Below, one piece after another: positions 4,977-44,743 of a stretch of 64,000 bases of DNA. The DNA is taken from NCBI GenBank assembly GCA_041739995.1, contig JBGSMV010000046.1, forward strand, positions 9,774-73,773, given 5' to 3'. The DNA is from Bdellovibrionota bacterium. Its GTDB lineage: Bacteria > Bdellovibrionota_C > UBA2361 > JBGSMV01. Every line of letters starts with the position of its first letter. Within the stretch, counting starts at the first letter, position 1. The notes beneath the pieces are model-generated. The model made no database searches. It was not told the DNA's origin and was given only the letters and a program-made list of their open reading frames with translations. The position numbers and the translations under genes were made by a program.

Positions 4977-5258
4977 CCCCCCATTAAACCACGCCGCGCA
5001 GACCTGTCGCACCCATCGGGAGCAATTTCTCCAGAAAGCACTGCCGCCAAACGTGAAAAAATCGCTCTCTAAGAGCGAATTGTCATGCCTTTGTCACGAA
5101 GCATCGGTGTTCCTCGTGCGATTCACGATCTTCCCGTTAATGACCGCCTCTGAATCTATTGACCGAGAGTCGCTGATTGCTGGAAGGTCTCGGCATCGAG
5201 AATAGCGAACTCGCCATTTCGTCATGTTCGCCGCTTTCGATTTTCTCAAGTTCAAGGA

Positions 5259-7520
5259 GTGCCCATGATTCTTCGCTCGGTGTTTTTAAGCCCTATCGGT
5301 CTGATTTCCCGGTTCAATTCTTCACTTAGATCTCCACACGCAAAGCTATCGTTAGCATTTGCCGGTGCAATGGCATTTGGAATTGGCGCAGCAAGTGTCT
5401 CCTGGGCTCAAGAGGACGTAACGCCTGAAGAGAGAAAGCCTCTAGAAATATTCGTTACCGCAGGGCGCGGGCTTGAACAGTCTCCCCTAGACGTGCCGCA
5501 ATCGATTGACACAATCACCGCCGAGCAGATAGGAGCCCAAGAATACGCCGACGTTGAAGACATTATTCGTCGAGTCCCGGGCGTTGGGCTCGCGCCGAGT
5601 GAAGGAAATCCAAATTACTGGCAGGAAGGCTTCACCATTCGTGGTCTTGGTGCTCAGCGCGTACTGACGCTCACCGATGGTATCCGTCAGGCTGGCCAAG
5701 GCATTGGCTACGGCGGTGGCAACCTGGGCCTTTATGACACTATCGGGATTGAAAGAATTGAAATTCTTCGTGGACCAGCTTCTGTGTTGTACGGCACCGA
5801 CGCCTTCGGCGGCGTGGTAAACATTATCACCCGTGAGCCAACGCGGCGCGAGGAGTTCGGTCTGAATGGGGCAATGCGCTATGGCTATGATGGTCAATTT
5901 GACCGTAATCGAGCGGGCGGCTACGTCGATTTTGGTGAAGATGCTTACGCCGTTGTGGTCGGTGGTAGTTATACCCGACAGAATGAACCGCAGCTTCGTG
6001 ACGGCGAGGACCCAAACCAGGGCTCGTATCGCCAGGTTGGCCTCTTCGGAAAAGCAGATTTTTTTCTAACCGAAGACACCACTGTGCGTTTCATTGCGAA
6101 CAACACCAGAAACTCTGATGTGCTGGTCACCCGCGATACTATCTCACTACCGATCGCGACTTTTGGCCCTCCAGGGTCATCGGAGCTTATCACTAATCCT
6201 CTATACTTCAGTTTTCCAAAGTATCAGCGCACCATGACGGGCGTCGAGATGACAGTCGACGATGTTGACGCTTCTTGGAAGGAATTCAAAACTGGCCTCT
6301 ATTGGCAACAGATTAGTCGCGAGTTTTATCGTGAGACAGCGGCATATCCGCAGTTTAATCCTGGCTTCGCTGGTCCTCCCACCTTCATTAACCCTTCAGC
6401 GACCATTGTCGCCGAGCGCACCAAAACTGATGACACGGTCAATGTATTCGAGTCTCAGTCCCAAGGTCGATTTGAACTTGGTGACCACACACTCACGGTC
6501 GGTCTCGACTTAGGCTACGACGATTCTGATCTGCCTGAAGACGTCGAGACGGAGATTGTTGCACAAGCCGGCTTTGGCGCAGTGATGAGACCACCCACCA
6601 CAGTTTCGCGCACACGTGCTGATGCTGACCAAGTAAGAGGCGGAATTTATGCCCAAGACAACTGGGACTTGGGTCAGTTTGAACTTGTTCACGGTGCTCG
6701 CTTTGACTATTTCGAAGTGAACGATTCGATCAGTGACTTCGATGACAGCGTTGCGGGAGTCAGTGGATCCGCCGGGGCAGTTTACAAGCGCACCGATGAA
6801 CACTCGATCTACCTTAACGTCGCCACTGGATTTCGTGCTCCTGATTTAGGAGAGCGTTTTCAAGACGGTGTCGTGAACTTAGGGGTACCGTCGCGGGTTA
6901 TTGGTAACCCCGATATTGATCCTGAGCGTTCGTACACCTCAGAAATTGGTACCAAGTATGATGACGGCTTCTTCAACGCCGAGCTCGCTGGGTATGCCAC
7001 ACGCATCATAGATTATATTGGACGAGTACCAGTCGGTATAATGGATGGGTTTTCAACTGAGATGATCGATAACGTCGGAGACATTACGCTCTACGGCTTT
7101 GAGTTCGCTACGAGCGCCCCGGTTTGCGATCTCTTCGAAGTGTACTTCAATGTTTCTCGTACTTGGACTAACCAGTCGGATAAGATTGATGTTCCCGGTG
7201 TGACCTTCAACTACGGCCTGTTCAGAGATTTTGAGATGAGCTCTGAGACGCTTGAAAGAGTGCGTACGGGCTTGAACTTCCGTACTGTGGGCCCGTCAAA
7301 CGACGATACAGTCACCCCTGGACGACCTCAGTTCCCTGGTCAGGCGGACTTCACCGTGGTGGATTTTGAACTCAACTTCTACCTCACCCAAATGTCCTTC
7401 GGCAAAGCGTCGATTGTAAGCGGCGTTAAGAACCTGTTCGACAAAGACTACCGCGAGCCATTCTTTGATGTGCTCCAACCTGCACGTAACGCCTATGCGG
7501 CGATACAGGTTGACTTCTAA
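5259..7520 (+). CDS. TonB-dependent outer-membrane receptor
   Basis: Signal peptide, TonB box IFVTA, plug IERIEILRGPASVLYGTDAFGGVVNIIT, FRAP and NPDI motifs, KNLFDKDY, terminal Phe. Confidence 0.95.
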   Translation: MPMILRSVFLSPIGLISRFNSSLRSPHAKLSLAFAGAMAFGIGAASVSWAQEDVTPEERKPLEIFVTAGRGLEQSPLDVPQSIDTITAEQIGAQEYADVEDIIRRVPGVGLAPSEGNPNYWQEGFTIRGLGAQRVLTLTDGIRQAGQGIGYGGGNLGLYDTIGIERIEILRGPASVLYGTDAFGGVVNIITREPTRREEFGLNGAMRYGYDGQFDRNRAGGYVDFGEDAYAVVVGGSYTRQNEPQLRDGEDPNQGSYRQVGLFGKADFFLTEDTTVRFIANNTRNSDVLVTRDTISLPIATFGPPGSSELITNPLYFSFPKYQRTMTGVEMTVDDVDASWKEFKTGLYWQQISREFYRETAAYPQFNPGFAGPPTFINPSATIVAERTKTDDTVNVFESQSQGRFELGDHTLTVGLDLGYDDSDLPEDVETEIVAQAGFGAVMRPPTTVSRTRADADQVRGGIYAQDNWDLGQFELVHGARFDYFEVNDSISDFDDSVAGVSGSAGAVYKRTDEHSIYLNVATGFRAPDLGERFQDGVVNLGVPSRVIGNPDIDPERSYTSEIGTKYDDGFFNAELAGYATRIIDYIGRVPVGIMDGFSTEMIDNVGDITLYGFEFATSAPVCDLFEVYFNVSRTWTNQSDKIDVPGVTFNYGLFRDFEMSSETLERVRTGLNFRTVGPSNDDTVTPGRPQFPGQADFTVVDFELNFYLTQMSFGKASIVSGVKNLFDKDYREPFFDVLQPARNAYAAIQVDF

Positions 7521-29945: not shown

Positions 29946-30163
29946 ATTCTCCAGGTGCCCCCTAAGCTATAGAAACGTCTCAAGAGGAGCAACCGCAGGT
30001 CCGTTATAGCTGTTAGCATGCTGACCGGCCCGTTCGGGGCCACATTGGACCTCTGGGTCGGGACGAAGAGACGGATTCGGCTAGTTCCCCCGGAGGCCTA
30101 TGGGTAGCGAGGAATTTTTGCACGATATCAGCCTCGGCGAGCTAATTGAATTTAAGGGGTCGA

Positions 30164-31531
30164 ATGAAGGCGCAGTCCAGTGATGAAAATGCTCCGTTTG
30201 TGATGCTTCGGGGAGACGATGCTTCATTTTCGGCTATCACTTCGTTGCTGGGGCGCTTCGCCCATCGCGTCGAGCTTGTACACGATCTCGACCAGGCTCG
30301 AGAACTCGTTCAGCATCCTCTGCGTCCAACCCAAGGGCTCCTGATACCGCTTCGCTTACACGACGACAGCTCAGGAATTAAAAGTTGCCTGGAGGCCAAG
30401 GCCGATCCTCTGCTTTCTCAAGCACCAGTCGTCGGACTCACGCCTTCACGCGATCGCGCCATCTTACAGAGTTTCTACGGTGCGGGAGCGGACAGTGTGA
30501 TACCTGTTCCCTTTGACGCTGAGGCGCTTTTTTTTCAACTTGACGCGTTAGTGCGAGCCTACCGCAGCATTGCTGAAATCTCGGCAGCGGGGAAAGACAC
30601 GTTGGCTCTCTCAAAGGGCGCGGTCGCTGCCCTCGACGCCACTCAAGAAGCCATTGTCCTATTTGACACTGACTACAGCCCGGTCTTCGCCAATGCGGCA
30701 GCCCGTTCTTACCTTATCGCTGAAAGAGGCATCACACCCGATCAGCTCTCGAAACTTTCGAATGAACTGAAACCTAGTTTGCGCGCAGCGCTTACCGGAA
30801 AAGCTCTTCCCACATCTGAGAGCAAGAAGAATTCTCTGGCGGCTACATTTACGCAACTGCGCGGAGAACGAGGGCTTCCAATTGGCGTAGCCGTACGGCT
30901 CGCCCACCTCGCTGACATCGAGTATTTAAGCCACAACCTCGAAATTGCCTTAAGATCCCAAGCACTTTCGTTACTTGGATCTGCTGCTCTTTTAAACTCC
31001 CTTACGCGTGCACACGGGGGCTACCCCTTAACGCCTCTGCATCAGTTTTTCTCTTCTATTTCCAAAGAAACTCCCCTCACTCCGCTTGGGCCCTTACTTA
31101 CGGCGCTTACAGAAGTGCTCGATAGCGTACTCCCCGCCTCCCTCGAACTCACGGTCCACGTTGAGGGAGAGCCTACCGTTTCCCTTCGACCAAGTGACGC
31201 CACGCGTCTCGTTGGCCACTTGCTGCTTTATACGGCAATGCGTTGCGGAAAAGACGGCTCAATTGCCGTAACCGCCGAACACGATCCCAGCGCCAAGGTC
31301 GTCAGTCTTTTGATCGTCGGCGAACACGGCAAGACGCGTCTTGGCGTTCAGAGGGACTATGTCGAAGAATGCTTGAGCAACGCCCAGGGGACCCAAAAAG
31401 GCTCGGATGGGGAAAAGCTCGTGTTTGGCCTAGAAGCAGCGCAGACAATCGCCGATCAATACCACCTACAGCTTGAGTACAAAACAAACGCCTCGCATAC
31501 GAAGGTGCGCATGCAGGTCTCGTGTAGCTAG
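30164..31531 (+). CDS. Degenerate receiver-PAS-kinase-like protein (pseudo-receiver/pseudokinase)
   Basis: REC-like N-terminus (GAGADSVIPVPFD) lacking the phospho-Asp and Lys; PAS-like EAIVLFD...FANAAA; HATPase-like tail FGLEAAQTIA. Confidence 0.6.
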   Translation: MKAQSSDENAPFVMLRGDDASFSAITSLLGRFAHRVELVHDLDQARELVQHPLRPTQGLLIPLRLHDDSSGIKSCLEAKADPLLSQAPVVGLTPSRDRAILQSFYGAGADSVIPVPFDAEALFFQLDALVRAYRSIAEISAAGKDTLALSKGAVAALDATQEAIVLFDTDYSPVFANAAARSYLIAERGITPDQLSKLSNELKPSLRAALTGKALPTSESKKNSLAATFTQLRGERGLPIGVAVRLAHLADIEYLSHNLEIALRSQALSLLGSAALLNSLTRAHGGYPLTPLHQFFSSISKETPLTPLGPLLTALTEVLDSVLPASLELTVHVEGEPTVSLRPSDATRLVGHLLLYTAMRCGKDGSIAVTAEHDPSAKVVSLLIVGEHGKTRLGVQRDYVEECLSNAQGTQKGSDGEKLVFGLEAAQTIADQYHLQLEYKTNASHTKVRMQVSCS

Positions 31532-31564
31532 TGTGGTGATTAAACCAGGAACGCGGTTTTCTCT

Positions 31565-31713
31565 CTCCGCTCCCTCCGTGTCTCCGCGTCACTAAAATTT
31601 AACCAGAAGGCCTGAAGGACCTGAGACTTCCATTGATGGATACGCAATGTTGCATTGGATGGGCGCGCTTTCTAGTTAGGGATTTTTATTGCGGAGACGG
31701 GGAGAGGGCGGAG
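31565..31713. repeat. Intergenic imperfect inverted repeat (REP-like)
   Basis: ctccgctccctccgtgtctccgc (31565-31587) vs gcggagacggggagagggcggag (31691-31713), 19/23 complementary. Confidence 0.55.
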
Positions 31714-31768
31714 CGTTTGAGCTGCCTCTGTTGCGAAAATATAAGCGTAGAGGAATCGCAGAGGCGAA

Positions 31769-31807
31769 CCTTGGACTGAGCAAGTCGAAGCTTTGCTCAG
31801 TCCAAGG
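31769..31807. terminator. Perfect 15-bp hairpin between convergent genes
   Basis: CCTTGGACTGAGCAA-gtcgaagct-TTGCTCAGTCCAAGG; no U tract, so the terminator role is uncertain. Confidence 0.45.
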
Positions 31808-31903
31808 ACAGCCTGCACCTGACCAGATAACAAAAGGCTAGTGTTGCGTCTGCGCCCTGTCGTTATTGCCTATCAGGTTTGTGAGGAAGCCTAGCGCGGA
31901 GAT

Positions 31904-33265
31904 TTAGCGCGAGAGTAACCACCACACGACCATCAAGATCAAGGCCAGCACCATCAAGAGACCGACGGTGAGCCAAATCTTGTCTTCCAGTGATGAACTT
32001 ACTTCATCTTCGCTCACCTCTGACGAGTACCGTGACCGACCGCTCGCATCAAATCCGCCACGGGGGCGCACGAGCGATGGATCAATCGCTACAGTCTGAT
32101 CGGCTCTCACATCATCCAGTGACCCGATCTTTCCAAATGGCAAACGATCAGGATGACGCGGAGTAGGCGGTGCATCTTGGGTATCATCCGCTTCCCCCTC
32201 TCCCCAAGGAAAGGAGCGCGTTGGATCTCGCCGCCCACCAGTCACATCTCCGGCCATATCACCTGACGCCTGCATCTCAACGGACTCGTTCGCCGAGTGC
32301 GAGCCACCTGAAGGACGTGTCGCGCGTGCGGCTTCTACCCAGCCGCCTTCAGTGCTTTGCTCATGCGCGGAGGGAGTCGAAAAAGTTCCTGCAGAATGTG
32401 CGTCCCCTTGGGCGCCACTCGCGTGCGCAAGCGAAGCTCCAGAGAGTGTGCCTGCCTCGTTTGCTGAAATAGGCGATTGGCCCGGTGGCGCACTGCGAGG
32501 ATCTCCTGCTGGTCCTTGCCCGAGCAGGTCTCGACTGCTCTCGCCACCACGGCGTCCACGATCCGCATCGGGCGAATCTGACGGGCTGCGCTTCGCACTC
32601 ACCACGTCATTGAAGATGATCCGGAAATGCTCAACCACTAACTCATCACGGTCCTGCAACACTCGCGTTTGGCTCAAGGCTTGGCCATTCAGCTCCACCA
32701 AAATATCTTTGGAGATAGTGAACGCCGCGACACTCTCACCACGACGCTCCACCACGAGAGATGGCAGGTCGTGCATATCGACACTTAGCTGGAGATCCGC
32801 ATTCTTTCCGCCAACGACGAGAGCGCGCCCAAACTCCGGCACCGGATACTCGGACTGAAATGCCTCGCGCGAGAACACCAAAAGAGATCTGATGCCAAAA
32901 CCCATTCGATCGAACTCAGCGCTCCCTCTTCGCTCCGCGTCCTCAACTTCGATCGCTACATCACCTAGCTGCAAGTAATCGCCCGGCTTTATCAAAAGCC
33001 AGACTTGTGTGGGGACCTTTTCGCCATTCAACCAGGAGCCGTTGGTGCTACCTTCGTCCCGGTAGGTCCAGTGCTGCCCTACCCCCCGAAGCAGACCATG
33101 CACTCGAGAGACTGCGCTGCTTGGAAGCGTGATACCCCCAGGTGGCGGTTCTCGACCAAGCAGCACTTCGTCGCCCTCGACAATGGCGAGCTGCCGGCGT
33201 GAACGTTGGTCAGGGGTGCCCCCAGGGGCTTGGACGATTTGAAATAACACTATAGGGCGAGCCAT
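31904..33265 (-). CDS. FHA-domain protein (FHA + degenerate second FHA, disordered linker, C-terminal TM anchor)
   Basis: LLGRE...AVSRVH...DEGSTNGSWLNG; second ALVVGG...VELNG...LQDRDEL; terminal hydrophobic helix; start at MARP. Confidence 0.85.
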   Translation of the reverse strand: MARPIVLFQIVQAPGGTPDQRSRRQLAIVEGDEVLLGREPPPGGITLPSSAVSRVHGLLRGVGQHWTYRDEGSTNGSWLNGEKVPTQVWLLIKPGDYLQLGDVAIEVEDAERRGSAEFDRMGFGIRSLLVFSREAFQSEYPVPEFGRALVVGGKNADLQLSVDMHDLPSLVVERRGESVAAFTISKDILVELNGQALSQTRVLQDRDELVVEHFRIIFNDVVSAKRSPSDSPDADRGRRGGESSRDLLGQGPAGDPRSAPPGQSPISANEAGTLSGASLAHASGAQGDAHSAGTFSTPSAHEQSTEGGWVEAARATRPSGGSHSANESVEMQASGDMAGDVTGGRRDPTRSFPWGEGEADDTQDAPPTPRHPDRLPFGKIGSLDDVRADQTVAIDPSLVRPRGGFDASGRSRYSSEVSEDEVSSSLEDKIWLTVGLLMVLALILMVVWWLLSR

Positions 33266-33406
33266 AGGGGGCAAAATAAACCTCAACAGCCCAAAGGTAC
33301 AATAGCTCAAGCTTCGATCTATGCATTTGAAAGATAGGGACCAGATCCGGAGGCCGGGGCACATATCTAGGCCCCCTTCTCACGCATGAGGGTCCAACAT
33401 CGTGCC

Positions 33407-33706
33407 TCAGGTGCTTCTCCGACGCGAAGAAGGTTGTTGCCGCTCTAACTCCGCAAGAACAGTGGCGACCGCCTCAAATAATTCTGCAGGAATAGACTGA
33501 TCGAGCTCGAGCTCCCCAAGCATACGGGCGAGTCCAGAGTCCTCGCGCACGGGAATGCCATAGCGATGTGCAAGCGCCACCACTTGATCGGCATGCATGT
33601 GTTCGGCGGTCACATTCACCGCCGGGGCTGCTCCTCCAGGGGTTCCTTTCTCTCGCGCCTGATATTCAATCCCCACCGCTCTGCGGTAACGCGCTTCTGC
33701 GGTCAT
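33407..33706 (-). CDS. Stand-alone FlhB/SctU C-terminal (CC) domain protein
   Basis: AVGIEY...AP.V...A..VVALAHRYGIPVREDSGLARML..LELDQSIPAELFEAVATVLA. Confidence 0.88.
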   Translation of the reverse strand: MTAEARYRRAVGIEYQAREKGTPGGAAPAVNVTAEHMHADQVVALAHRYGIPVREDSGLARMLGELELDQSIPAELFEAVATVLAELERQQPSSRRRST

Positions 33707-36700
33707 CGGCCCTCCTTCGGAGCACCTCGAACACCCTGTGGCGACTTCTCAATAAGTGGATTTTTAGACCTACTCTGCCCTTCTGTAGCTTCTGTCCGTG
33801 CTTGATCGGGTCGATCTGCCCTTTGTGCGTAATCAGACGATCCCTTTGATCCCTCCTTTCCCAGTCCGGAAGGATACGGTGGCATCTGCGGGATTGAGCT
33901 TCGCTTCCGCTCTGCCACACCCTGATGCACTTCACCGGGATGCACAGCACCGGGAGCAAATGAACCCTGAGCGCGGGGAAGGACGGGAGCCACGGGTGGG
34001 ATGGGGTTCTCCACCTCTGAGCTAACCCGCAAGGCAAGAGATCCTCCCGTCAGGCGATTTTCAAGAACGCTACGAATTTGTTCGCTCATCGACCAAATTC
34101 GTAGAGGTTTTTCAAAAAGCTGGCAGCGATCTCTCGCCAATTCCTTGCTTTCCCAATGCTGTAGGTCGGCAACATACCCAAAGATATTTACCGCTGGATG
34201 GATTTGGAGGATCGATGCAACAAGGTCTGTGGCTACGGTCCCGACACGATCAAGATCAATGAGGACCAGCGCTCGCACATCACGTACTTGGCGCAGCATC
34301 TGCAACAAGCGCTCGCGAGTCAACGGAATAGCCACGTCCGCGTGCGGCCCTTCGAAGGAAGATCGCAGCGAATAGCCAATCGCAGAATCAATCTCAAACA
34401 TGAAGACGTGAGTGAACTCGGTAGCTCTGTCGCTGCCGCCCACACCCACATGCGTACCGGTCGCCGTCTCGCCCGACACTGCAGGAAGATATACACTAAA
34501 GGTCGTACCCTGCCCCTGCTGGGTGCGCACCGTGATCGCTCCATCGTGCTGCTTTACGATCGAATAGGCAGACGAGAGTCCTAAGCCCGATCCACCGAAT
34601 CCAAGCCCCGTGCGCGTATCAATATTCTTGGTGGTGAAAAACGGCTCAAAACATCGTGTTTGGCTCTCTGGCGTCATGCCGGGGCCATTGTCTTCAACTT
34701 CGACACGCAGATATTCCCCTGGTGCAAGTTCGGGATCTACCTCGCCTGATCTAACTTTCACGCGACGAACAAAGACTTTTACCTTTCCGTCGGACCTGCC
34801 CTCGAGCGCTTCTTTGGAGTTCACCAATAGATTGGTAATGACCTGCTGCAACTGGCTCTGATCGGCAACGATTGGCGGCGCGTCAGAGGTGACATCATAC
34901 TCGAGCTCAATTCCCGCGCCGAGCACTGAGCGATAAAGCTCTTTGGAGTCTTCAAGAAAGCTCTGCACTGAAAGAGTGGTAGGGGCAAAACCGCCCTGCA
35001 TAGAAAAATTGAATAGCTGCTTCACAAGGCTGGCCCCTTTTGAGGCCGCATCATTAATCATGCGCGCTGACTGAGTGACTCTCTTGTCGTGGCCCATCTG
35101 CATCTCTATCAAAGAAGCCTGACCCATCACTGCTTGCAGAAGATTATTGAAATTATGCGCCACCCCAGAAGCAAGTAAGCCTGCCATGCGCATCTTGTCG
35201 GCATCCGCCATGCGCGCTTCGAACTTTCTGGCGAGAATTACAGTGGCGATCTCCGTGGCCATGCTGTTCAGCAATGGAAGTTTGCGCTGCACAAAGAATG
35301 TCGATGGCACTGCCGGTTCAACTACTAGTACGCCGACCACTTGCCCCAAAGCGACCAGAGGCACAATGACAATGGTTCCACAGTTCAAGCGCGCAAGCAC
35401 TCGCCCAAGATCGCCGCATTCCTGCTCGGCGGAGGCGTCGAATACCACAGGAGATCTGGTGCGAATGGCGCGATCGAGCAACTGATTCTTGGCGCCAAGT
35501 TCGACTTGCATGTCCACTACGTGCTTACGAATTCCTGGGCCCACACCTGCGGTGCCCATCAAGTGAGAACCACGATTGTTCATCACTCCAAGCCACATGC
35601 GCTTGCACGCAATTTCTTCTTGAATTGAAGGAAAGGCATGCTCGGCCACTTCCTTCAGAGTCATTTGCTTTGAGAGTTCGTGGCTTAAGCGATAGAGCGC
35701 AGACAGCGAGCTTGAATGTCTTTTCTCTGCGGCATAGAGCTCAGCTTGTCGAGCGGCCAATGCGATCTGTGCGCATGCAGCCGAAACAAGATCATAATCA
35801 TCCGTTGAGTACTGCGCTTCAGTTCTGCGGAAAAGAACCATGACCCCGAGCACCTGTTCCTCGAAAACAAGTGGCATGATGATGGTGGCTCGAACTCCCT
35901 CGCGCCGCGCAAGTTCGACTGCGGCACGTGGTTCTTGTTGAATGTTGCTGAGCAACACACCCTCACGGCGGTCGACTGCGTCTCGCGCCAGGGTGTGCTT
36001 CCCGATAATCGCGCCGACATCTTCTACATACTGACTGGACAGCCCCTCTGCCGCGACCACTTCCAGCTGACCTGTTGAGGGATCGATCAGTCCGCTAAAA
36101 CCACAATCACTTCCCGTCGCGCGAATAAGTGCTCTTAAACCTTTGAGCGCGACCACACTGGGATCCAAATTTAGCTCAAGAGAACGCGCCACTTCATACA
36201 GCGCCTCAATGCGACGCCCTTGAGAACGAGAACGCTCTTCTGCGGCGCGACGTGCAGTGGTATCAACCCAGAACCCTTCCCAACCCATCAAGCTTGGATT
36301 GACCTGATCTGAGCCATTCGCAAAAAATGGAATCGCACGCATTAATATCCAGCGCACCTCTCCAGTCAGCTGATTGGTGACCTGAACTTCATCATTGAAC
36401 TCGCCAAACGGCAGAGAACGCGCGCGGCGCAATACTCGTCTTAACTCATGTGCTCGAAAAGAGCGTCGCCAACGCGAGGGGGAGGAAAGCAGTTCGTCCG
36501 CTGGGAAACCAAACAGGCGTTGGGTGTCCCCCACAAGTTCAGTCACTCTCAATGCAGGATCGGTACGAACGATCAGGAGCTCTCCGTGCTCTGCGATCCT
36601 TCGATATGATGAACGGCGCTGCTCTTCTAAATCGCCTGCGGCAGCGTCCGCTCTTTCGGCAACACGAGACTCAATTTCTGAGGGCTTAGAAACAAGACTG

Positions 36701-37233
36701 AGTGGAGACGACTCCACTTCGGTTTCCTTCAAGTCAGCGCGATGCTCTGGCGAGGTATAAAAGTCATCCCGCGATCCAATCTCCCTCTCGATACGAAGCC
36801 CAAGCAGAGTAGCTGCTAATTCTGAATAGGCTCGCTCCTCTCCACGCAGGCGAAGATGCTCATGAATCGTGAAGGCTTCCAAAGCGGCGACCATGCGATC
36901 TCCAGCATACACCGGAACTAGCAGATACGATTTGACTCCATTCTCTTCGAGCTGCTCTCGAAGCATCGGGTCGATTCGCTGTCGCTGGGGATCGGAGACG
37001 AACAGCGGTAGACGCATCGCACGCCCTCGAAGCGAAGCTTCGCCGGAGCGAATAGTAATTCCTGCGACGGAGCTTGAACTCCAGGATTCGCCACTTTCAG
37101 AAAGAAGGATAACCTGGTCGAAATTAAGAAATTCAGAGAAGAGTTTGGCGACGATCTGCGACGCGTGAGACGTATCTCTGGAGGCAGAGAGCGCTTTGCG
37201 AAGCGAGGCCAGAGGTGAAAACGCTTCAGTCAC
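33703..37233 (-). CDS. Soluble hybrid histidine kinase (GAF-PAS-GAF-GAF-HisKA-HATPase-REC)
   Basis: H-box GVAHNFNNLL, N-box QVITNLLVNSKEA, DNGPGM, FEPFFTTK, GSGLGLS; C-terminal REC-like LIDLD...EKP; no TM seen. Confidence 0.93.
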   Translation of the reverse strand: MTEAFSPLASLRKALSASRDTSHASQIVAKLFSEFLNFDQVILLSESGESWSSSSVAGITIRSGEASLRGRAMRLPLFVSDPQRQRIDPMLREQLEENGVKSYLLVPVYAGDRMVAALEAFTIHEHLRLRGEERAYSELAATLLGLRIEREIGSRDDFYTSPEHRADLKETEVESSPLSLVSKPSEIESRVAERADAAAGDLEEQRRSSYRRIAEHGELLIVRTDPALRVTELVGDTQRLFGFPADELLSSPSRWRRSFRAHELRRVLRRARSLPFGEFNDEVQVTNQLTGEVRWILMRAIPFFANGSDQVNPSLMGWEGFWVDTTARRAAEERSRSQGRRIEALYEVARSLELNLDPSVVALKGLRALIRATGSDCGFSGLIDPSTGQLEVVAAEGLSSQYVEDVGAIIGKHTLARDAVDRREGVLLSNIQQEPRAAVELARREGVRATIIMPLVFEEQVLGVMVLFRRTEAQYSTDDYDLVSAACAQIALAARQAELYAAEKRHSSSLSALYRLSHELSKQMTLKEVAEHAFPSIQEEIACKRMWLGVMNNRGSHLMGTAGVGPGIRKHVVDMQVELGAKNQLLDRAIRTRSPVVFDASAEQECGDLGRVLARLNCGTIVIVPLVALGQVVGVLVVEPAVPSTFFVQRKLPLLNSMATEIATVILARKFEARMADADKMRMAGLLASGVAHNFNNLLQAVMGQASLIEMQMGHDKRVTQSARMINDAASKGASLVKQLFNFSMQGGFAPTTLSVQSFLEDSKELYRSVLGAGIELEYDVTSDAPPIVADQSQLQQVITNLLVNSKEALEGRSDGKVKVFVRRVKVRSGEVDPELAPGEYLRVEVEDNGPGMTPESQTRCFEPFFTTKNIDTRTGLGFGGSGLGLSSAYSIVKQHDGAITVRTQQGQGTTFSVYLPAVSGETATGTHVGVGGSDRATEFTHVFMFEIDSAIGYSLRSSFEGPHADVAIPLTRERLLQMLRQVRDVRALVLIDLDRVGTVATDLVASILQIHPAVNIFGYVADLQHWESKELARDRCQLFEKPLRIWSMSEQIRSVLENRLTGGSLALRVSSEVENPIPPVAPVLPRAQGSFAPGAVHPGEVHQGVAERKRSSIPQMPPYPSGLGKEGSKGSSDYAQRADRPDQARTEATEGQSRSKNPLIEKSPQGVRGAPKEGR

Positions 37234-37244
37234 GACGAATCAGC

Positions 37245-38033
37245 TTAAGAGAGACTATTTCGTTCAACAATAATAACTCGGGCCCGTTTCACACGGCGCT
37301 CTACTTCGCGTAGCGCCAATGCCTCGTGCAATGCCCTTCTTGCACTCTTGAGGAGTGGATCACCCTCCTCTTCTCGATAATCCCGACGAACCTCATCGGT
37401 TGTCATGGACATTTCCCTTAAAAAACTTCGTCGGTTGAGCACATACTCCACTGCTCCCAGAAGAAGCAGCATTACACCTGCGATGGCTGACAACACGATC
37501 AGCTCTGACCGACACCAGTCCAGCAACACTCTCACATCCGAACCAAACAATTCGAATGCAGAGCGAAAGGAGCTGTTTAAAACCAAAAACAACCCGGTGC
37601 CCAAAAGGGCTACCATCAGGATTGTCCGCCATACTCGCAGCATGCCAGTCCACACTGTGCCGAATCCGGCAAAGGGACTACATCGCTCCAACTGCGGACT
37701 TAAGAGTGCCCACGCGAAACGCAACCCGACCTGAAAGAACTCGAACAGCAGTCCTACGAGCGCCCCGGCTCCCAAACTAATTAAAAGAAATGAAAGCGCG
37801 GACTCTAGGAAAGAACGAACGCAGCCGAACCCTTCGGTTCTGACATCGTTAAAACAATAGTTTAGCAAGATTGTGGGGCTTACCCAACCTGACTGCAGCA
37901 GCCAGCCTGCACATAGGCAGACTGCCAAAGCTGCGGCATTTTGCGTTAAAATTCGGCTCCTTACCACCCTACCGCGTTTACGGGCGTCTTCTAGACGGCG
38001 CTGTGTCGGGGCGTGTCCTTTGTACTCAGCCAC
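37245..38033 (-). CDS. flhB: SctU/FlhB export-gate protein, N-terminal part only (ends at the cleavage site)
   Basis: PTQRRLEDARKRGRVVRS, four TMs, MSMTTDEVRRDYREEEGDPLLKSARR; ends ARVIIVERNSLS* without NPTH. Confidence 0.88.
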   Translation of the reverse strand: MAEYKGHAPTQRRLEDARKRGRVVRSRILTQNAAALAVCLCAGWLLQSGWVSPTILLNYCFNDVRTEGFGCVRSFLESALSFLLISLGAGALVGLLFEFFQVGLRFAWALLSPQLERCSPFAGFGTVWTGMLRVWRTILMVALLGTGLFLVLNSSFRSAFELFGSDVRVLLDWCRSELIVLSAIAGVMLLLLGAVEYVLNRRSFLREMSMTTDEVRRDYREEEGDPLLKSARRALHEALALREVERRVKRARVIIVERNSLS

Positions 38034-38877
38034 CGATTCCTCCTAAAAAAGAGTCAGAATCGGGCTCCTTCTGGCCGTTCTGGAGAGCTTGAGGGCCGCT
38101 CTGAGAGGCCTCCGATACCGGCACCAGAGCGGAAAGTACCACCGCCGGCTGCGCAAGTTGTTGAAGACTCGAGAACAATCCAAGCTGCCAAGAACCGACA
38201 GCCATAGTCCACAGCAGCAGTGATTTTATGAGAAACACTTCGCTGGTGAATGAGACCTGCGGCATTACTTTGGAAACCCATCCGAAGGCCAGCTCAAGCA
38301 AGAGTGCGACGACAGAAAACCACCCGACCAATAGAACGCACCACTGCATGGTAGAGACCGTTGCCTGCAAAGCAAACCTACAATACTGAACTACGGAACT
38401 AACGCTTGTGACCGGAGACATGCGCGCACTCTCCAGGAAGGTCCCGACCAACTGATCGCCAAGCCCTGACAACAACAGCAGTGCCCAGATCCATGCATGC
38501 GCAAGAATCGCAAAGGACGGTTCTCCCTCCATTTGTTCCTTGGCACCTAAGGGATCAACAAAGGCTGACAGGGTTTGGCCACGTACAGTCTCAAACAGCT
38601 CTCCCCCCATAGATACCAGCGAGAGCACTAACGCGGCGGGAAGTCCTAAACATAATCCAAAGAGAAACTCGCTTATAAAGAAATGCCACTCGAGCGTGAC
38701 ATTCATCGCCCCCGGCCCTATTCCACAAAACGCGAGTCCCCATGCAAGTGCCATTCGAAGCGCCAGCATCGAGGGTGAGGATCCAAGCGGGAGCAGCGTT
38801 AACATCCCCAGTGCGCGAAGCACCAGTCCCGCCACGCCCACGCCGTAAACCTGGAGATACTCGAAGACGGTGCTCAT
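38026..38877 (-). CDS. fliR: Type III export-gate protein SctT/FliR
   Basis: Multi-TM, EFLFGLCLG, GGELFETVRG..L...VDP, SKVMPQVS; position between sctS and sctU. Confidence 0.82.
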   Translation of the reverse strand: MSTVFEYLQVYGVGVAGLVLRALGMLTLLPLGSSPSMLALRMALAWGLAFCGIGPGAMNVTLEWHFFISEFLFGLCLGLPAALVLSLVSMGGELFETVRGQTLSAFVDPLGAKEQMEGEPSFAILAHAWIWALLLLSGLGDQLVGTFLESARMSPVTSVSSVVQYCRFALQATVSTMQWCVLLVGWFSVVALLLELAFGWVSKVMPQVSFTSEVFLIKSLLLWTMAVGSWQLGLFSSLQQLAQPAVVLSALVPVSEASQSGPQALQNGQKEPDSDSFLGGIGG

Positions 38878-39137
38878 GACATTTGACCGAAATATACCAG
38901 GCTGCTCAGCATGTCCTGCATAAAGCGAACCAACTTCTCGCTGAAGAAATCTGCTCCGACAATTAAAACGGCGCTGACGGTGACCACTCGCACCAGAAAC
39001 TGCACTGTCTGTTCTTGAATCTGTGTTGCTGCTTGAAACACGGAGAGCACGAGACTGACGACACAGCTGACGAGCAGAGGAATTCCGCTTATGATCGCGA
39101 CAAGTAACAGCCCTTCAGCTACCAATGTATCAAACAC
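38874..39137 (-). CDS. fliQ: Type III export-gate protein SctS/FliQ
   Basis: 87 aa, SVFQAATQIQEQT. Confidence 0.92.
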   Translation of the reverse strand: MFDTLVAEGLLLVAIISGIPLLVSCVVSLVLSVFQAATQIQEQTVQFLVRVVTVSAVLIVGADFFSEKLVRFMQDMLSSLVYFGQMS

Positions 39138-39175
39138 TACTTACTCCCCTTAAGTTCATAACGCCTCTGAAGCGC

Positions 39176-39916
39176 TTACTGATAAGATTGTACGAGTCCT
39201 CGTGTGATCAGCAGCCACCCATCGGAAACCACCAAAAGAAGAATTTTCAACGGAAGTGCCACCATGATGGGGCTCACCATCGTCATCCCCATGCCGACCA
39301 GAAGATTTGCCACGATTAGGTCGACCACCAAAAACGGCAATAGCAGCACGAATCCCATCGCAAACGCTTCTTTGATCTCGGTAAGCACGAATGCGGGTAA
39401 CAGCACTCGAAGCGAGAGCACTTCAGCAGGAGTGCTCGTCCCCTCACCCTCAAGCGGTTGATCAGACGCGGCACCAAGCTCTTTCAAGGCATGAATTTCT
39501 CTCTCTCCGGCATGCCGCTCTAAAAACCGCCTAAGCGGTGCGAATACTTCGACTGCCACCTGCCCGGCCTGCTCCATAGAAAGCGCCCGTATATCTCCTG
39601 CGGGAAGGGCCTTTGCACATTCATCGAATACCGGGGCCATGGCATACCCGGTGATTGCGACCGACATCGCCATCACTACCAAGCCGCTCGGCGTGTGTTG
39701 AGTTCCCAATGCGCTGCGAACCATGCCCAGCACCACACTCACTTTGAGATATGCGGTAAAAAGTCCCATGACCATCGGAACAAGTGCGAACACTGTGGCG
39801 ATAACGATGAACCACCCAGGGTGTATCGCTCCCCATTGGCTTCCTGCGAGCTGCGCGGCACCGCTTTGAGCTGAACCGAAGTGTTGCTCGATTCCTGCTA
39901 TCAGATCAGGCTTCAT
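39176..39916 (-). CDS. fliP: Type III export-gate protein SctR/FliP
   Basis: TAYLKVSVVLGMVRSALGTQ, LPAFVLTEIKEAF, PFLVVDLIVANLLVGMGMTMVSP...LPLK...DGW. Confidence 0.93.
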   Translation of the reverse strand: MKPDLIAGIEQHFGSAQSGAAQLAGSQWGAIHPGWFIVIATVFALVPMVMGLFTAYLKVSVVLGMVRSALGTQHTPSGLVVMAMSVAITGYAMAPVFDECAKALPAGDIRALSMEQAGQVAVEVFAPLRRFLERHAGEREIHALKELGAASDQPLEGEGTSTPAEVLSLRVLLPAFVLTEIKEAFAMGFVLLLPFLVVDLIVANLLVGMGMTMVSPIMVALPLKILLLVVSDGWLLITRGLVQSYQ

Positions 39917-40289
39917 ACGTTTCTCCACTTGCTAGATGAAATGGTAGAAGCGTGGTCGTTGAGGCGCGCACTTCAGAGATGTGGGGATGCCCAGAAGCTT
40001 CTCTTGTCGTTTTCTGCTCTGCGACTCCCTTCTCGCTCAGTACTTGAACTCCCCGAGAGGAAGTGGCGAGCATCCACTGCCTGTCCCCCCACTCCACGAC
40101 AACAAGGCGTTGCTCCCGACCTATATTGATGGCCTCTCGAATCCGCATACCCACCTCGGCACGTTTTCCAATGCCGATTCTTCGCATGCGCACTGTGCGT
40201 ACGGTGACTCCCCACAACACCAGGAGCACGACGAGAAACGCTGCGCTACGCGCAAGCACTTTCAAATCTTCGGCGTTAAAAATCTCCAT
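39906..40289 (-). CDS. fliO: FliO-like export-gate assembly chaperone
   Basis: Single N-terminal TM then MRIREAINIGREQRLVVVEWGDRQWMLATSSRGVQVL; directly upstream of fliP. Confidence 0.8.
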   Translation of the reverse strand: MEIFNAEDLKVLARSAAFLVVLLVLWGVTVRTVRMRRIGIGKRAEVGMRIREAINIGREQRLVVVEWGDRQWMLATSSRGVQVLSEKGVAEQKTTREASGHPHISEVRASTTTLLPFHLASGETYEA

Positions 40290-40295
40290 ATGTGC

Positions 40296-41354
40296 CTATC
40301 TCCTTAAGTATCCCTGCTGATTTCGTGGCTGCTCTCTATCACCGTCACAAACTTGATATCCTTTGCGGGTGAGTGCTGCTCGCACTTCTCGCAACGATCG
40401 TGAAAGTAGATGTCGATCCGCCAATTTTTCAGGGGCAATCATCATGCTGACTTGGCCCTCGACTGATCGGGAGATCTGCACCTGCACTACTCGGCCACCT
40501 TCTAACTGATATCCAAATCGCACCGACTTCGGAGCTCCTTGCGCATCTGTTTCGACCCCCGATGTTTCAGAATTTTTCTGTAGGTGTGCAGCAAGGGCCT
40601 GTTTCCATTCGAGGACTCTTGCCGACTCTCCGCGAGCTTCAGGCGCTGACCCTGGTGAATTGAAATTGCGTTGATCTCGACTTTCACTAGAACCCTGCCC
40701 CATGCCGGCATTTCCTTCGGAAAGGCCTGCCAAGTTTGCCAAGTTTGATTCCGGCGCGCTCACGGCGAGCGGCTCCACAGAAGCCACAGATTCTGCAGAC
40801 GAGCATGGCATTTCGGATTCTTTTAAATGCTCGAATGCTCCAGCGCTCGACTTCTTGGTCTTGTCACACTGACGCCGAGAACCGACCAGCTGAGTGAGCT
40901 CGTCTGCTTGCGCGAATTCGCTTTGGATCGCCTTCTTTCGCCCAAGCACTCGAACCATTTCGTCCAGACACTCTGCTCTTTGACGATGAAGACCAAGACT
41001 CTGAGTAGCTTGTGCCACGGTGTCGCGCTGCTCCCGCAGCTTAAGACCTGCAGAGCTCGCCGCAGTCCGTGCGTCTGCACCAATGTGTTGCGCACGCTTA
41101 ACGGCTGCTTCGCAGCATTCTAGGATAAGACGCGGAGAACTATTGGTATGGCCCGGCCGCTCAGATCTCTCCCGTTCAACGCGCGAACGAGCCGCCCCAA
41201 ACGCCGCTTCAAAAGCGCTGCGCTCCTGGGCAGCTTGGCTCTCGGTGACTCGAAGCGAAGAGCTTCGCTGGTGAAGTTGCACTTCGGCGTTTCTCACCAG
41301 ACTTCGCTCGTACTCAGCTCTTCGCTGCACTATTTCGTTATCGAGCATTTCCAT
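40296..41354 (-). CDS. Coiled-coil (SctO/FliJ-like) protein with C-terminal FliK/SctP-like domain
   Basis: N-terminal half is an R/E/Q/A-rich coiled coil; Ser/Gly linker; C-terminal VQVQISRSVEGQVSMMI...LLSRSLREVRAALTRKGYQV; AAGGAG RBS. Confidence 0.55.
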   Translation of the reverse strand: MEMLDNEIVQRRAEYERSLVRNAEVQLHQRSSSLRVTESQAAQERSAFEAAFGAARSRVERERSERPGHTNSSPRLILECCEAAVKRAQHIGADARTAASSAGLKLREQRDTVAQATQSLGLHRQRAECLDEMVRVLGRKKAIQSEFAQADELTQLVGSRRQCDKTKKSSAGAFEHLKESEMPCSSAESVASVEPLAVSAPESNLANLAGLSEGNAGMGQGSSESRDQRNFNSPGSAPEARGESARVLEWKQALAAHLQKNSETSGVETDAQGAPKSVRFGYQLEGGRVVQVQISRSVEGQVSMMIAPEKLADRHLLSRSLREVRAALTRKGYQVCDGDREQPRNQQGYLRR

Positions 41355-41405
41355 CGATCCTCTCCTTGCGAACCGCTGTTGCCGGCGCACTTTCCTTTGA
41401 GGTTG

Positions 41406-41792
41406 TTAGGGCTGTGATTGAAGTTTCTTGAGTGTCCCCTGAAAGCTATCCGCCACCTTTCCAATCATCTCGACTCGCAGATTCAGCTCGCCGGCTTTGA
41501 TTTGGTACATCAGTAGCTCACGTGCGCTGAGCGACTTACCTTGCATGGCGGCATCACGAATTCCTAGCAAATCACGGTGGAGCGCTGTATCGAATACGTC
41601 GCCAATACTTGCGCCTCTCACACTTGCACTTTGCGTAGTTCCTTCTATCCGCGGCTGCTCCTTTACCTTGTCGAGTACCTGCTGGAAACTTGGCTCAGAA
41701 GTCACATTCAGTCGTTGTGGTACCGCAGAGGTGGGCGCAGCCTGTGAAACAGACGACTGTGAAATAGCAAAGGCAGAGGTAATACTTTCCAT
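41406..41792 (-). CDS. SctI (YscI/HrpB2)-like inner-rod protein
   Basis: Low-complexity N-terminus; C-terminal LSARELLMYQ...RVEMIGKVADSFQGTLKKLQSQ; AAGGAG RBS. Confidence 0.6.
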   Translation of the reverse strand: MESITSAFAISQSSVSQAAPTSAVPQRLNVTSEPSFQQVLDKVKEQPRIEGTTQSASVRGASIGDVFDTALHRDLLGIRDAAMQGKSLSARELLMYQIKAGELNLRVEMIGKVADSFQGTLKKLQSQP

Positions 41793-41864
41793 AGGGATGC
41801 AGCTCCTTCGGGCACGGAGTTTACGGATCACCTCACAAGACTTCGGTGACCAGAGTCGAAGCGC

Positions 41865-41891
41865 TAATCGGAGATTTGGTGGAAAAGTTTC
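41865..41891 (-). promoter_or_regulatory. Candidate sigma28-type promoter of the export operon
   Basis: GAAACTTT-N11-TCCGATTA vs TAAAGTTT-N11-GCCGATAA. Confidence 0.4.
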
Positions 41892-42017
41892 CTCCTGAGC
41901 ATATAGGCTCAGGCAGCGCGGTAACCGCCTGGAACGATTTGCAAAAAAAACCACCTTAATGAGGTGTGCAGGAAAACTGCGAGAGGAGTGCTATGAAGGT
42001 TGCGCGCCGAAACCGTC

Positions 42018-43013
42018 CTATCGAGTCTCGCCGTCATCATCGGCCGCCCCGCCTAAAAGATCAGCTGGAGATTTAAGCCCCTGGGGTTCTTCAGGTGAGC
42101 CGACAAAATCTTCGCTTCGAAAATCATCAGATCTTGCGCCAAAGAGAAGGTCGGCGAGGGACACGCTATCGTCATCACCTTCTTCTCCTCGCGCACCCCG
42201 GAGCCCACTAAGACTCACCTCTTCACCCGGCGCCAGTCCAACAGCCGGAGCCTTGAGCCCCCGACGAAACTCGGGAAACACAGGATCGTCGGCTCTGGCT
42301 GGCTCGCCCTGTTCTTCTAGGAGACGATCCAGTGCAGATCTTAATCTAATGACATCGTAGCTCACCCGCAGGGCGACCCCTTGAATGCGAGCCACTAGAT
42401 TCGCTCTGTCAATATTAGAGAACGTGACCTCGGCGAGACGATTCGGATTCCACCTCACGTCCGCCGCTTCAAACGCCCGCCGCAACTCATCCGTAAGTTC
42501 ACGTCGAGCGCTCGCGGCAACGTCAATCGGTTCACTCACTTCTCCATTCCTTTCACCGATCACTCCGCTATTCACTGCTCCATTCACGGCGCGGTTCACG
42601 GCACCATTCAAGCTGCCATTTTGATCAGTCGCAGTCCCTGCCTGGGAATGGGGAGGCTCTGTGTGATCACCGCCCCCCTGAACCGCGCGAGGCTGCGAGG
42701 GAAGCGGTCTTACTGGCGCATCTATCTCGAGAGATGTTTTCTGCGAAAGAATTCGCGGCCGAAGGCGTATCTTGGCAAGGAAATTGGGATCTCGGCGTGC
42801 AAGCACTCCGAAGGGAGAATCCTCTGAAAATCCTCGGGCCGGCCGCAAAGAGCTCGCGACAGGGGGGAGAGAACCAGAGTCTGAGGCGCTGTCCCCGACC
42901 TGCAGCGGCAAAGCAGAGCTCGAAGCCTCATCGGGCTTGTCTATATTTGTGTCCTCTCGTGGTCTTTGCTGCAACATACACCCCCACTTTCTAACAACTG
43001 CGTCAGCGTACAC
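42018..43013 (-). CDS. Hypothetical, largely disordered protein
   Basis: 331-aa ORF filling the gap, central helical segment, NGAV/NRAV repeats; start uncertain. Confidence 0.55.
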   Translation of the reverse strand: MYADAVVRKWGCMLQQRPREDTNIDKPDEASSSALPLQVGDSASDSGSLPPVASSLRPARGFSEDSPFGVLARRDPNFLAKIRLRPRILSQKTSLEIDAPVRPLPSQPRAVQGGGDHTEPPHSQAGTATDQNGSLNGAVNRAVNGAVNSGVIGERNGEVSEPIDVAASARRELTDELRRAFEAADVRWNPNRLAEVTFSNIDRANLVARIQGVALRVSYDVIRLRSALDRLLEEQGEPARADDPVFPEFRRGLKAPAVGLAPGEEVSLSGLRGARGEEGDDDSVSLADLLFGARSDDFRSEDFVGSPEEPQGLKSPADLLGGAADDDGETR

Positions 43014-43091
43014 GAGAGCGGAGAGCTAGAAAAACACTACAAAAACGCTAAATTATGGACAACTTTGTATTTAGTGGGCTCCAGGCACACT

Positions 43092-43541
43092 TTATTTTGA
43101 TTTACGAATCTCAGAAGAGTCAAGGTTGCCGGCTTCATCACGCGCAGAACCAGACGCTAATTCAGCAAGAGTAGCAATAACTTGCGCATTAAAGTCGCGC
43201 TGACGCCGCAGCGTATCTTTAAAAAAGACCCGCAGAATCGGAAACATGCAGCGCTTCGCCGCTACAATGAGTGGTCCAATAAATTTGCGATGCGACGACA
43301 GCTTCCGCGGAGCAACGAGGTCCACTTCCCAGAGCTGACACAGTCGTCTAAGGCGCTCAAGCACTTCGTTAGAAACATTAAGGCGATGGCGCACTGGGAG
43401 AAACGTTACGTCCTGCACGTAACGCACGTCACCTTCCTTAAACGACCCCGAAGCAATCTTCTCTCGCACGCGACCTTGAAGACTGCGTTCGAGCTCCAAG
43501 ACAGAGACCGGTGATTCTTGAGGAACTGAAATCCAACCCAT
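43092..43541 (-). CDS. Hypothetical protein associated with surface-polysaccharide genes
   Basis: SSHRKFIGPLIVAAKR...RQRDFNAQV; follows the GT4 gene. Confidence 0.6.
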   Translation of the reverse strand: MGWISVPQESPVSVLELERSLQGRVREKIASGSFKEGDVRYVQDVTFLPVRHRLNVSNEVLERLRRLCQLWEVDLVAPRKLSSHRKFIGPLIVAAKRCMFPILRVFFKDTLRRQRDFNAQVIATLAELASGSARDEAGNLDSSEIRKSK

Positions 43542-43606
43542 AGTCATTAATCTCACTGGCGGTCTTGCCTGCGACAGCCTTCTGGCTATCCTTCAAAACT
43601 TGGACT

Positions 43607-44743
43607 CTACCCTACTTTCACCAGCTCCTGAAACAGCTGCTCATACTGGGTAGTAACCCCCTCCCACTGATAGCAAAGTTCCGCTCGAGCTCGCGCCGAC
43701 GCCCCAAGATCCTGTGTCTTTTCCGGGCTACACATCAGCTCCGACATACGCCTGGAAAGCACTGCAAAATCATTTTTGGGGTAATACCATCCGGCATCTC
43801 CCAAAACCTCGCGGTGCTCGGGAACATCATTCGCAATCACTGCGTTTCCGTATGCCATGGCTTCCACTAAAGCCGGATGAGTGCCTCCCACCTCAGTGGC
43901 CTGAATGGTAATCGCACAGTGAGAACGAAGCTCCTGGTAAGCTTCCCCGAAACGAAACCCCGTAAAGATAACACCGGGAACCGCGCGCTCGCGCAATTGC
44001 TTCTTATACTCATCGGCATACGGCGCATCTCCGACAATTACTAAAGGCATACGCCGATCCGCTTCGGGTAACATGCGATACGCCTCTATAACTCCGAGCG
44101 CATTATTCTCAGGCTCTAGGCGACTCACATACAAAATAAAATTTCCCGACTTCAATCCGAACTCGGCCAGAGTCGCTCCCGGCTCGCGTCGATGCACCGT
44201 TGCTCCGTATGCGATCACCGTGGACGAAATTCCGTATTGTTCTAAATAGTAGTCGGCTATCACTTTCGCATCGGACACCACTCGTTGCCCAAACCATACC
44301 GAGCAGCGCTCGCCCAGGGAGTACCAAAGTTTGCCGACCTTGTTCCATTTGGTGCGCCGACGTTCAATGCCGTCGACGTTCACCGCGAGCGGAATTTTTC
44401 TTAAGTTCGCAAGCCAGGCGAAGGGACTGTTGGCCGCGTTGCACAGCAACAAAACATCGAAGGCTCTGTCGCCACTACGCAGCGCCACATCGAGGAAACT
44501 AGTCAACGCATGCAGCGGGGTCTCTAGATACTTGTGCATGATGGTGGGAACGACGCGACGTTGCACTCCTTTGAAAGCGCTATCCTCACGGCTTTTCTGG
44601 AAAAAAGGTCGGCGCCCATACACCGTCACTTCATGCCCCTTGGCCACAAGGCGAACAGAGAGCTCCTCTGCAAAGGTTTCAAACCCGCCGTAGGCAGCAG
44701 GAATGCCACGAGTTCCTAAAATTCCGATCCGTAGTCGTTTCAT
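43607..44743 (-). CDS. Glycosyltransferase family 4 (DUF1972 type)
   Basis: IGILGTRGIPAAYGGFETFAE, NVDGIE, VSRLEPENN, EVGGTHPALVEAM. Confidence 0.93.
   Translation of the reverse strand: MKRLRIGILGTRGIPAAYGGFETFAEELSVRLVAKGHEVTVYGRRPFFQKSREDSAFKGVQRRVVPTIMHKYLETPLHALTSFLDVALRSGDRAFDVLLLCNAANSPFAWLANLRKIPLAVNVDGIERRRTKWNKVGKLWYSLGERCSVWFGQRVVSDAKVIADYYLEQYGISSTVIAYGATVHRREPGATLAEFGLKSGNFILYVSRLEPENNALGVIEAYRMLPEADRRMPLVIVGDAPYADEYKKQLRERAVPGVIFTGFRFGEAYQELRSHCAITIQATEVGGTHPALVEAMAYGNAVIANDVPEHREVLGDAGWYYPKNDFAVLSRRMSELMCSPEKTQDLGASARARAELCYQWEGVTTQYEQLFQELVKVG

Follow-up and report, generated by a model that had tools for sequence, protein, structure and literature searches.

In type III secretion it has long been asked why FlhB and its relative SctU cleave themselves. 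In solved structures the two cleaved fragments, CN and CC, remain together as one fold. Stand-alone FlhB-CC-like proteins also exist, such as FlhX of Helicobacter pylori and YlqH of Bacillus subtilis, and these co-exist with the full-length FlhB of their own system. The locus described here lies in a 64,000-nucleotide stretch of a Bdellovibrionota genome (GenBank assembly GCA_041739995.1, contig JBGSMV010000046.1, positions 9,774 to 73,773; this whole stretch is called the window hereafter). In the window, the break in sctU falls within the loop where self-cleavage of FlhB/SctU takes place, between the N and the P of NPTH; the NPTH motif is gone, and a gene for a sensor histidine kinase stands between the two halves.

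Cleavage at NPTH is described as splitting FlhB-C into CN and CC and as being needed for substrate switching (PMC7064499). For Salmonella, a pre-cleaved SpaS is reported to be fully functional and the cleavage event itself not to be the signal (PMC4620466). Dissociation and secretion of YscU-CC are reported for Yersinia (PMC3504009). Among non-flagellar type III secretion systems (T3SS), the “Myxo” systems of Myxococcales are described as having neither secretin nor needle (Abby & Rocha 2012, PMC3459982). The needle-less T3SS* of Myxococcus xanthus is said to work with the Tad-like Kil system (PMC12428579, PMC12075869), and FliO homologues are reported in non-flagellar T3SS operons of Myxococcota (PMC12403147). 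The available portions of the M. xanthus T3SS* accounts (PMC12075869, PMC12428579) make no mention of sctU or of a kinase. Among core T3SS genes, the closest known case of a split is the secretin pair sctC1/sctC2 of rhizobial-type T3SS (PMC3574062), which is likewise a conserved and functional division into two open reading frames (ORFs) within a family but concerns another component, is not broken at a self-cleavage site and has no signalling gene between its parts. A full-text search, covering few subscription-journal papers and no supplements, found no publication that describes SctU/FlhB encoded in two pieces or a kinase situated between the halves.

The genes of the window follow one another on the minus strand in the order sctR-sctS-sctT, sctU-N (262 amino acids), a soluble GAF/PAS histidine kinase (1176 amino acids), sctU-C (99 amino acids) and a SctD-like FHA gene. 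The original prediction, made from the sequence alone, had placed a truncated sctU-like gene at 37245-38033, a kinase starting 11 nucleotides (nt) further on and a 99-amino-acid gene overlapping the kinase stop as ATGA, and these ORFs and coordinates are as it claimed. sctU-N (37245..38033, minus strand) has a GTG start and encodes the four-transmembrane (TM) domain, the CN linker and the beta-strand usually found just ahead of NPTH; its product ends in RARVIIVERNSLS, 6 residues past this strand, and is followed by the stop. The kinase gene (33703..37233, minus strand; Pfam GAF_2, GAF, HisKA and HATPase_c) starts with the GTG at 37233, 11 nt past the end of the sctU-N ORF. sctU-C (33407..33706, minus strand; Pfam PF01312) carries the SctU CC sub-domain as a protein of its own. 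Its ATG overlaps the kinase stop as ATGA, and an AAGGAGG Shine-Dalgarno sequence is located 4 nt upstream of this ATG, within the kinase gene. It is probable that sctU-C is translated in coupling with the termination of kinase synthesis.

Both halves were compared with profile hidden Markov models (HMMs). On Pfam Bac_export_2 (PF01312), SctU-N matched model positions 3-256 of 335 with 146.8 bits for a cut-off of 24.4, and SctU-C matched positions 262-333 with 45.5 bits. The two ORFs tile the model without overlap, and the sole uncovered part is the NPTH loop, in line with the gene fission that had been proposed. The top NCBIfam match of SctU-N was the SctU model TIGR01404, with 127 bits, below the full-length cut-off of 358. 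SctU-C scored 47.4 bits on the same model, also missing this full-length equivalog cut-off, and 47.8 bits on TIGR00789 (flhB_rel), where the cut-off of 117.35 was not reached. With the latter model, four SctU-C orthologues scored 34.9-61.1.

To locate the break, the N proteins of the window and of 20 relatives were aligned with the full-length flagellar FlhB of the same genome. The orthologous N proteins all end 1-20 residues past the strand aligning with the FlhB strand that precedes NPTH, and they always keep the strand whose partner in solved structures is CC. The C proteins all begin with a short basic leader, followed by a strand aligned to the FlhB segment that starts at the His of NPTH. 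When a profile of 35 C proteins was compared with the PDB, its position 9 aligned to residue 3 of post-cleavage CC chains, with matches to Aquifex FlhB (3b1s_B, E 2.2e-20) and also to EscU and YscU. Neither NPTH nor NPEH was found in any of the 35 N proteins, the 35 C proteins or 149 cluster representatives of the family (the window's own excluded). Since the N proteins end shortly past the strand before NPTH and the C proteins start a few residues ahead of the post-cleavage strand, the fission reproduces the autocleavage fragments at the gene level.

Relatives were sought in 124 species-level genomes of the window's phylum-level group, all labelled as the same class or closer, and a SctU-N match at E <= 1e-8 was present in 106 of them. 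Forty related loci were read by tblastn and by means of HMMs derived from the first set of loci. The succession of sctU-N, kinase and sctU-C was observed in 34 of these 40 loci, spread over 23 families in all, including 21 of the 23 loci from the window's own taxonomic order and 13 of the 17 from other orders. Because it recurs in so many related loci, the arrangement is far beyond chance. Four loci are cut by contig ends, three inside the kinase (L042, L068 and L069) and one right after sctU-N (L071). What the relatives share is the split and not an intact gene. In these genomes sctR-S-T lie ahead of the triad, which is usually followed by an FHA gene. The kinase is also packed tightly against sctU-C. 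With the C start taken as the in-frame start nearest the kinase stop, the two genes overlap in 21 of 35 loci and are separated by 1-15 nt in 12 and by 53 or 116 nt in 2, so that in 33 of the 35 they either overlap or lie no more than 15 nt apart. On the other side, the distance from the sctU-N stop to the kinase start is at most 50 nt in 29/35 loci.

The 35 SctU-N orthologues measure 252-280 amino acids, and the reading frames are intact at identities of 19-44% for the N and 21-52% for the C proteins. The kinase holds its position in the 23 families at protein identities down to 17-30%. A wider search in a library of 1.84 billion cluster representatives (50%-identity clusters) retrieved 4197 proteins with the SctU-N profile at E <= 1e-30, and the best 150 of these 4197 are all 254-290 amino acids long. 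The junction alignment, the recurrence of the order and the lengths of the representatives bear out the claim that sctU is split genetically at its autocleavage loop, and they indicate a split that is old, conserved and under selection. Bac_export_2 clusters of 249-267 amino acids were also seen in the ESM Atlas, with few labelled members, belonging to Pseudomonadota or Planctomycetota, and similar SctU truncations may thus occur outside the group.

The genome, which is 91% complete, was searched for other copies, and five Bac_export_2 matches were recovered, two of them being the pieces in the window. The third is a full-length FlhB of 366 amino acids with NPTH, encoded in a flagellar flhB-flhA-flhF-flhG-fliA cluster; it is the sole full-length NPTH-bearing FlhB of the genome. 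The fourth is a TM-only SctU of 229 amino acids on contig C55, covering model positions 2-220, and the fifth is an orphan CC gene of 93 amino acids on contig C42 (L007, 8851-9132). There is no full-length SctU in the genome for serving this gate, in agreement with the original prediction of a switch protein that is cut in advance. Contig C55 (L006, 2251-10158) carries a second type III-like cluster, with two FHA genes, SctJ, a FliJ-like gene, SctQ, SctR and SctS. The orphan CC protein of contig C42 is the more FlhX-like copy, with 84.2 bits on TIGR00789.

The architecture of the kinase was drawn from an AlphaFold2 model (mean predicted local distance difference test, pLDDT, 78.3). This model places a GAF domain at residues 6-153, a disordered linker at 155-199, a PAS domain at about 195-324, two further GAF domains at 326-470 and 477-640, a DHp domain with His693 at 645-744, a catalytic ATPase domain at 752-918, a receiver-like domain of five strands and five helices at 942-1061 and a disordered tail at 1063-1176. 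No TM segment is evident in the protein. The HATPase_c match reaches 84 bits in Pfam, and the phospho-acceptor His and the N, G1 and G2 boxes (H693, N805, D848/G850/G852 and G883) are invariant in 35/35 orthologues. Residues 481-920 form the most conserved core and are present in all 35, while the total length of the orthologues goes from 551 to 1205 amino acids. An intein or trans-splicing element was considered and rejected, the insert being a whole kinase gene, catalytically intact and having its own start and stop, in which Pfam detects no Hint/intein domain.

The description of this protein as a hybrid kinase, given in the original prediction, probably holds for the window and less so for the family. 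Residues 942-1061 adopt a (beta-alpha)5 fold in the AlphaFold2 model (10-residue block-mean pLDDT 67-94) with Asp993/Asp995 and Lys1042-Pro1043 in place, but Pfam Response_reg gave no match on the kinase even at E 10, and a receiver-like domain is found in only about half of the orthologues. Among the 17 receiver-bearing orthologues, D993 is retained in 14, and D995 in 14 with Glu in the other 3; K1042-P1043 is retained where the domain is present. In one relative (L057, genome G063, 3417-6753) the kinase is read as two ORFs, matching HMM positions 7-163 and 164-896, which reflects a frameshift, an assembly error or a genuine division of the N-terminal GAF domain.

Compared with FlhB/SctU proteins such as YscU, EscU and SpaS, the locus shows the same four-TM domain, CN linker and CC fold, the same position after sctRST and the same end state of two polypeptides, one with TM and CN and the other with CC. 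The difference is that two genes produce them here, with no NPTH/Asn-cyclisation chemistry and with a kinase gene between the halves. SctU-C also resembles the stand-alone FlhB-CC-like proteins of TIGR00789 in being small (about 90 amino acids) and in holding the CC sub-domain only. It differs from them in that its operon partner is itself truncated at the complementary position, and in missing the cut-off of that model.

We consider it likely that these genes represent an ancient and functional fission of sctU that replaces autocleavage in a non-flagellar Bdellovibrionota type III system, together with a dedicated kinase translated alongside. SctU-N and SctU-C would reassemble non-covalently on the SctRST gate to give a SctU permanently in the cleaved state, an association inferred from the cleaved fragments that stay together in solved structures and from the functional pre-cleaved SpaS. 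Gene fission would in this way take the place of self-cleavage and make the NPTH chemistry unnecessary, and a pre-cut SctU would suit a machine in which there may be no needle length to gauge. The kinase, given its conservation and the packing of the genes, would be a dedicated cytoplasmic regulator produced in step with SctU-C. Its GAF/PAS domains would sense a cytoplasmic ligand, and its output would pass through a response regulator that controls the expression or the activity of the machine. The conservation of the kinase argues for a functional tie. A more specific version, in which the gate itself is the input, is tentative and in our view rather improbable: the kinase would hold free SctU-C or dock on CN/CC, and docking, dissociation or export of CC would switch it. 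Dissociation or export as a trigger would echo the YscU-CC dissociation and secretion described in the Yersinia report (PMC3504009). When two copies of kinase residues 481-925 were co-folded with SctU-C using 35-row alignments, the score was 0.00, which speaks neither for nor against binding.

If sctU fission is the correct reading, this lineage of uncultured Bdellovibrionota is a natural experiment in which a type III gate has long been run with a genetically pre-cut SctU and without NPTH chemistry, and it supports the view that the cleaved conformation matters and not the cleavage event. It would also make two naturally separate, stable SctU halves available for biochemistry. The presence of a conserved kinase between them points to a regulatory connection, so far undescribed, of a type III gate with two-component signalling. 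Were the gate also the input of the kinase, the assembly or secretion state of a predatory, Tad-pilus-linked machine would be converted into a phosphorylation signal, a new kind of secretion-coupled two-component sensor.

Several observations weigh against functional fission with a dedicated kinase, and three other explanations were considered. In a single genome, a truncated N beside a separate C would resemble a disruption, that is, a pseudogene decaying after insertion of a kinase into an intact sctU, or an assembly artefact. Yet the same break with intact frames is found in 34 independently assembled genomes, at N identities of 19-44%, and the 150 best cluster representatives are all of truncated length. 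As to mis-assembly, contigs from four public runs of one study, among which the source sample may figure, match the window exactly and span both junctions without difference. Because the order is shared by 34/40 loci, the 150 best representatives measure 254-290 amino acids and the catalytic residues are kept in 35/35 kinases, the arrangement is neither decay nor mis-assembly, and an explanation by pseudogene or artefact, to which we give next to no credit, is effectively refuted. SctU-C could otherwise be an independent factor of the FlhX/YlqH type acting elsewhere, for example on the flagellar gate, with SctU-N working alone in its truncated form. Stand-alone CC-like proteins are indeed a known family (NCBIfam TIGR00789), and the genome has, besides the genes of the window, an orphan CC gene on a different contig as well as another SctU of which only the TM domain is left. 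We nevertheless hold such an independent role to be very improbable: SctU-C belongs to the same operon in 34/40 loci and comes directly after N in the locus that lacks the kinase (L074), N always keeps the strand for pairing with CC, and SctU-C scores about as well on the SctU model (47.4) as on TIGR00789 (47.8, cut-off 117.35), where the orphan of contig C42 reaches 84.2. A further difficulty for a strict two-polypeptide family is P0008, a full-length, single-chain SctU-N relative of 350 amino acids (31% identity, from a 2.7-kb contig) whose junction has no NPTH and which is a fused form, presumably uncleavable. In another relative (L072), N and the kinase are present and C was not found within the next 3.7 kb. 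Two non-flagellar SctV paralogues, both candidates for this gate, are also present in the genome.

The kinase might finally be a passenger that arrived by a single insertion, within or beside a sctU already in two pieces; it would stay only because overlapping junctions are difficult to undo, and would regulate something unrelated to secretion by this machine. In the locus L074 (genome G016, 3995-5022), sctU-C follows sctU-N directly with a 4-nt overlap and without a kinase, in a taxonomic order whose other 21 complete loci have it, so the kinase is dispensable for the split. The sensor region (residues 1-480) and the receiver domain are variable or absent among the orthologues, and no partner response regulator conserved across the group was found in the loci, the receiver-like neighbour at 30146-31531 being present in 10/41. 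One would, however, expect a neutral gene to have been lost or relocated in more than 1 of the 36 informative loci; this one stands in the same place throughout 23 families, with protein identities as low as 17-30%, a highly conserved core (481-920) and invariant catalytic residues. We thus regard the passenger kinase as unlikely, and retain sctU fission with a kinase dedicated to the gate as the preferred explanation.

The gate genes upstream of sctU-N were assigned to the non-flagellar type. sctT (FliR family; 38026..38877, minus strand) matches Pfam Bac_export_1 with 56.5 bits and has SctT TIGR01401 as its top NCBIfam model, and sctS (FliQ family; 38874..39137, minus strand) matches Bac_export_3 with 69.5 bits and has SctS TIGR01403 on top. 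sctR (FliP family, non-flagellar type; 39176..39928, minus strand) gives 175 bits with Pfam FliP; on NCBIfam NF009438 (EscR/YscR/HrcR) its product scores 196 bits, above the cut-off of 179, and on the flagellar fliP model 159, under the cut-off of 217. SctS, SctT and SctU-N each score highest against Sct models. The genome has a separate flagellar set, consisting of the flhBAFG-fliA cluster with FliF/FliI and FliM/N elsewhere. Upstream of sctR, a FliO-like small membrane protein is encoded at 39906..40289 (minus strand; Pfam FliO 32 bits for a cut-off of 22), which scores 35.8 on TIGR03500, under the cut-off. No match to the needle protein PF09392 was found in the genome at E <= 0.1, a search that divergent needle proteins could escape in a genome 91% complete. 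At the same completeness, no T3SS-type secretin above cut-off was found, the two secretins of the genome reaching 112 bits on TIGR02516 for a cut-off of 238. The machine is a non-flagellar type III system, probably needle-less.

It resembles the needle-less “Myxo”-type non-flagellar systems. The likeness to “Myxo” T3SS and to the T3SS* of M. xanthus lies in a non-flagellar gate for which needle and T3SS-type secretin go undetected, and that to Myxococcota T3SS in a FliO homologue adjoining sctR (PMC12403147). The genome has three FlhA/SctV paralogues, one flagellar, one ending a Tad-like pilus operon and one with a SctJ gene, and the second of these recalls the pairing of Kil with T3SS* in M. 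xanthus predation. The difference is in the phylum, and the likeness is one of gene content. The genome context, with a needle-less-looking system, a FliO homologue and a SctV ending a Tad-like operon, suggests that relatives of the Myxococcus predation apparatus exist in Bdellovibrionota. On contig C47 (L076, 792-14478), the SctV/FlhA paralogue, of 700 amino acids, comes directly after the Tad-like pilus operon, which comprises a Ser/Thr kinase, a TadZ-like ATPase, RcpC/CpaB, a TadA-like ATPase and two TadB/C-like proteins, and is itself followed by a pseudokinase-HEAT protein. On contig C36 (L008, 395-2519, minus strand), the flagellar flhBAFG-fliA cluster has two divergent neighbours, a FliH-like gene and one for another type III ATPase (372.8 bits on TIGR01026). 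FliI is encoded together with FliF on contig C53, and the C36 pair may serve the non-flagellar systems.

Downstream of the triad, 42 nt past sctU-C, begins a gene for an FHA-domain SctD-like protein (31904..33364, minus strand; Pfam FHA), a candidate large inner-ring component that scores 34.1 bits on Yop-YscD_cpl for a cut-off of 33.2. By blastp, a homologue of this protein was found after sctU-C in 25/41 loci. Upstream of the gate genes, a conserved small protein with no family assigned is encoded at 41406..41954 (minus strand). It has HMM matches in most loci, and its C-terminal helix is conserved across the group (alignment A4). A search of the PDB with its profile gave nothing significant, the faint matches to needle proteins and flagellins having E values of 0.22-9, with a type III needle protein as the best (E 0.22). 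This small protein could be a diverged axial or rod protein. A scan of 31500-44000 yielded 6 promoter-like and 13 terminator-like sites, against 5.2 and 13.0 in shuffled sequence.

Two plus-strand genes of the window are of interest as signalling partners. The convergent gene at 30146..31531 encodes a candidate partner response regulator of 461 amino acids, at whose N-terminus a receiver domain is weakly matched (residues 1-165, Pfam Response_reg E 0.0036; PhoB model E 0.0018), and its homologues, in 10/41 loci, are confined to the closer relatives. The gene at 44880-47606, which is transcribed away from the type III cluster at its upstream end, encodes a protein of 908 amino acids with PAS and a C-terminal receiver domain, whose output domain was not recognised, and is a possible signalling partner.

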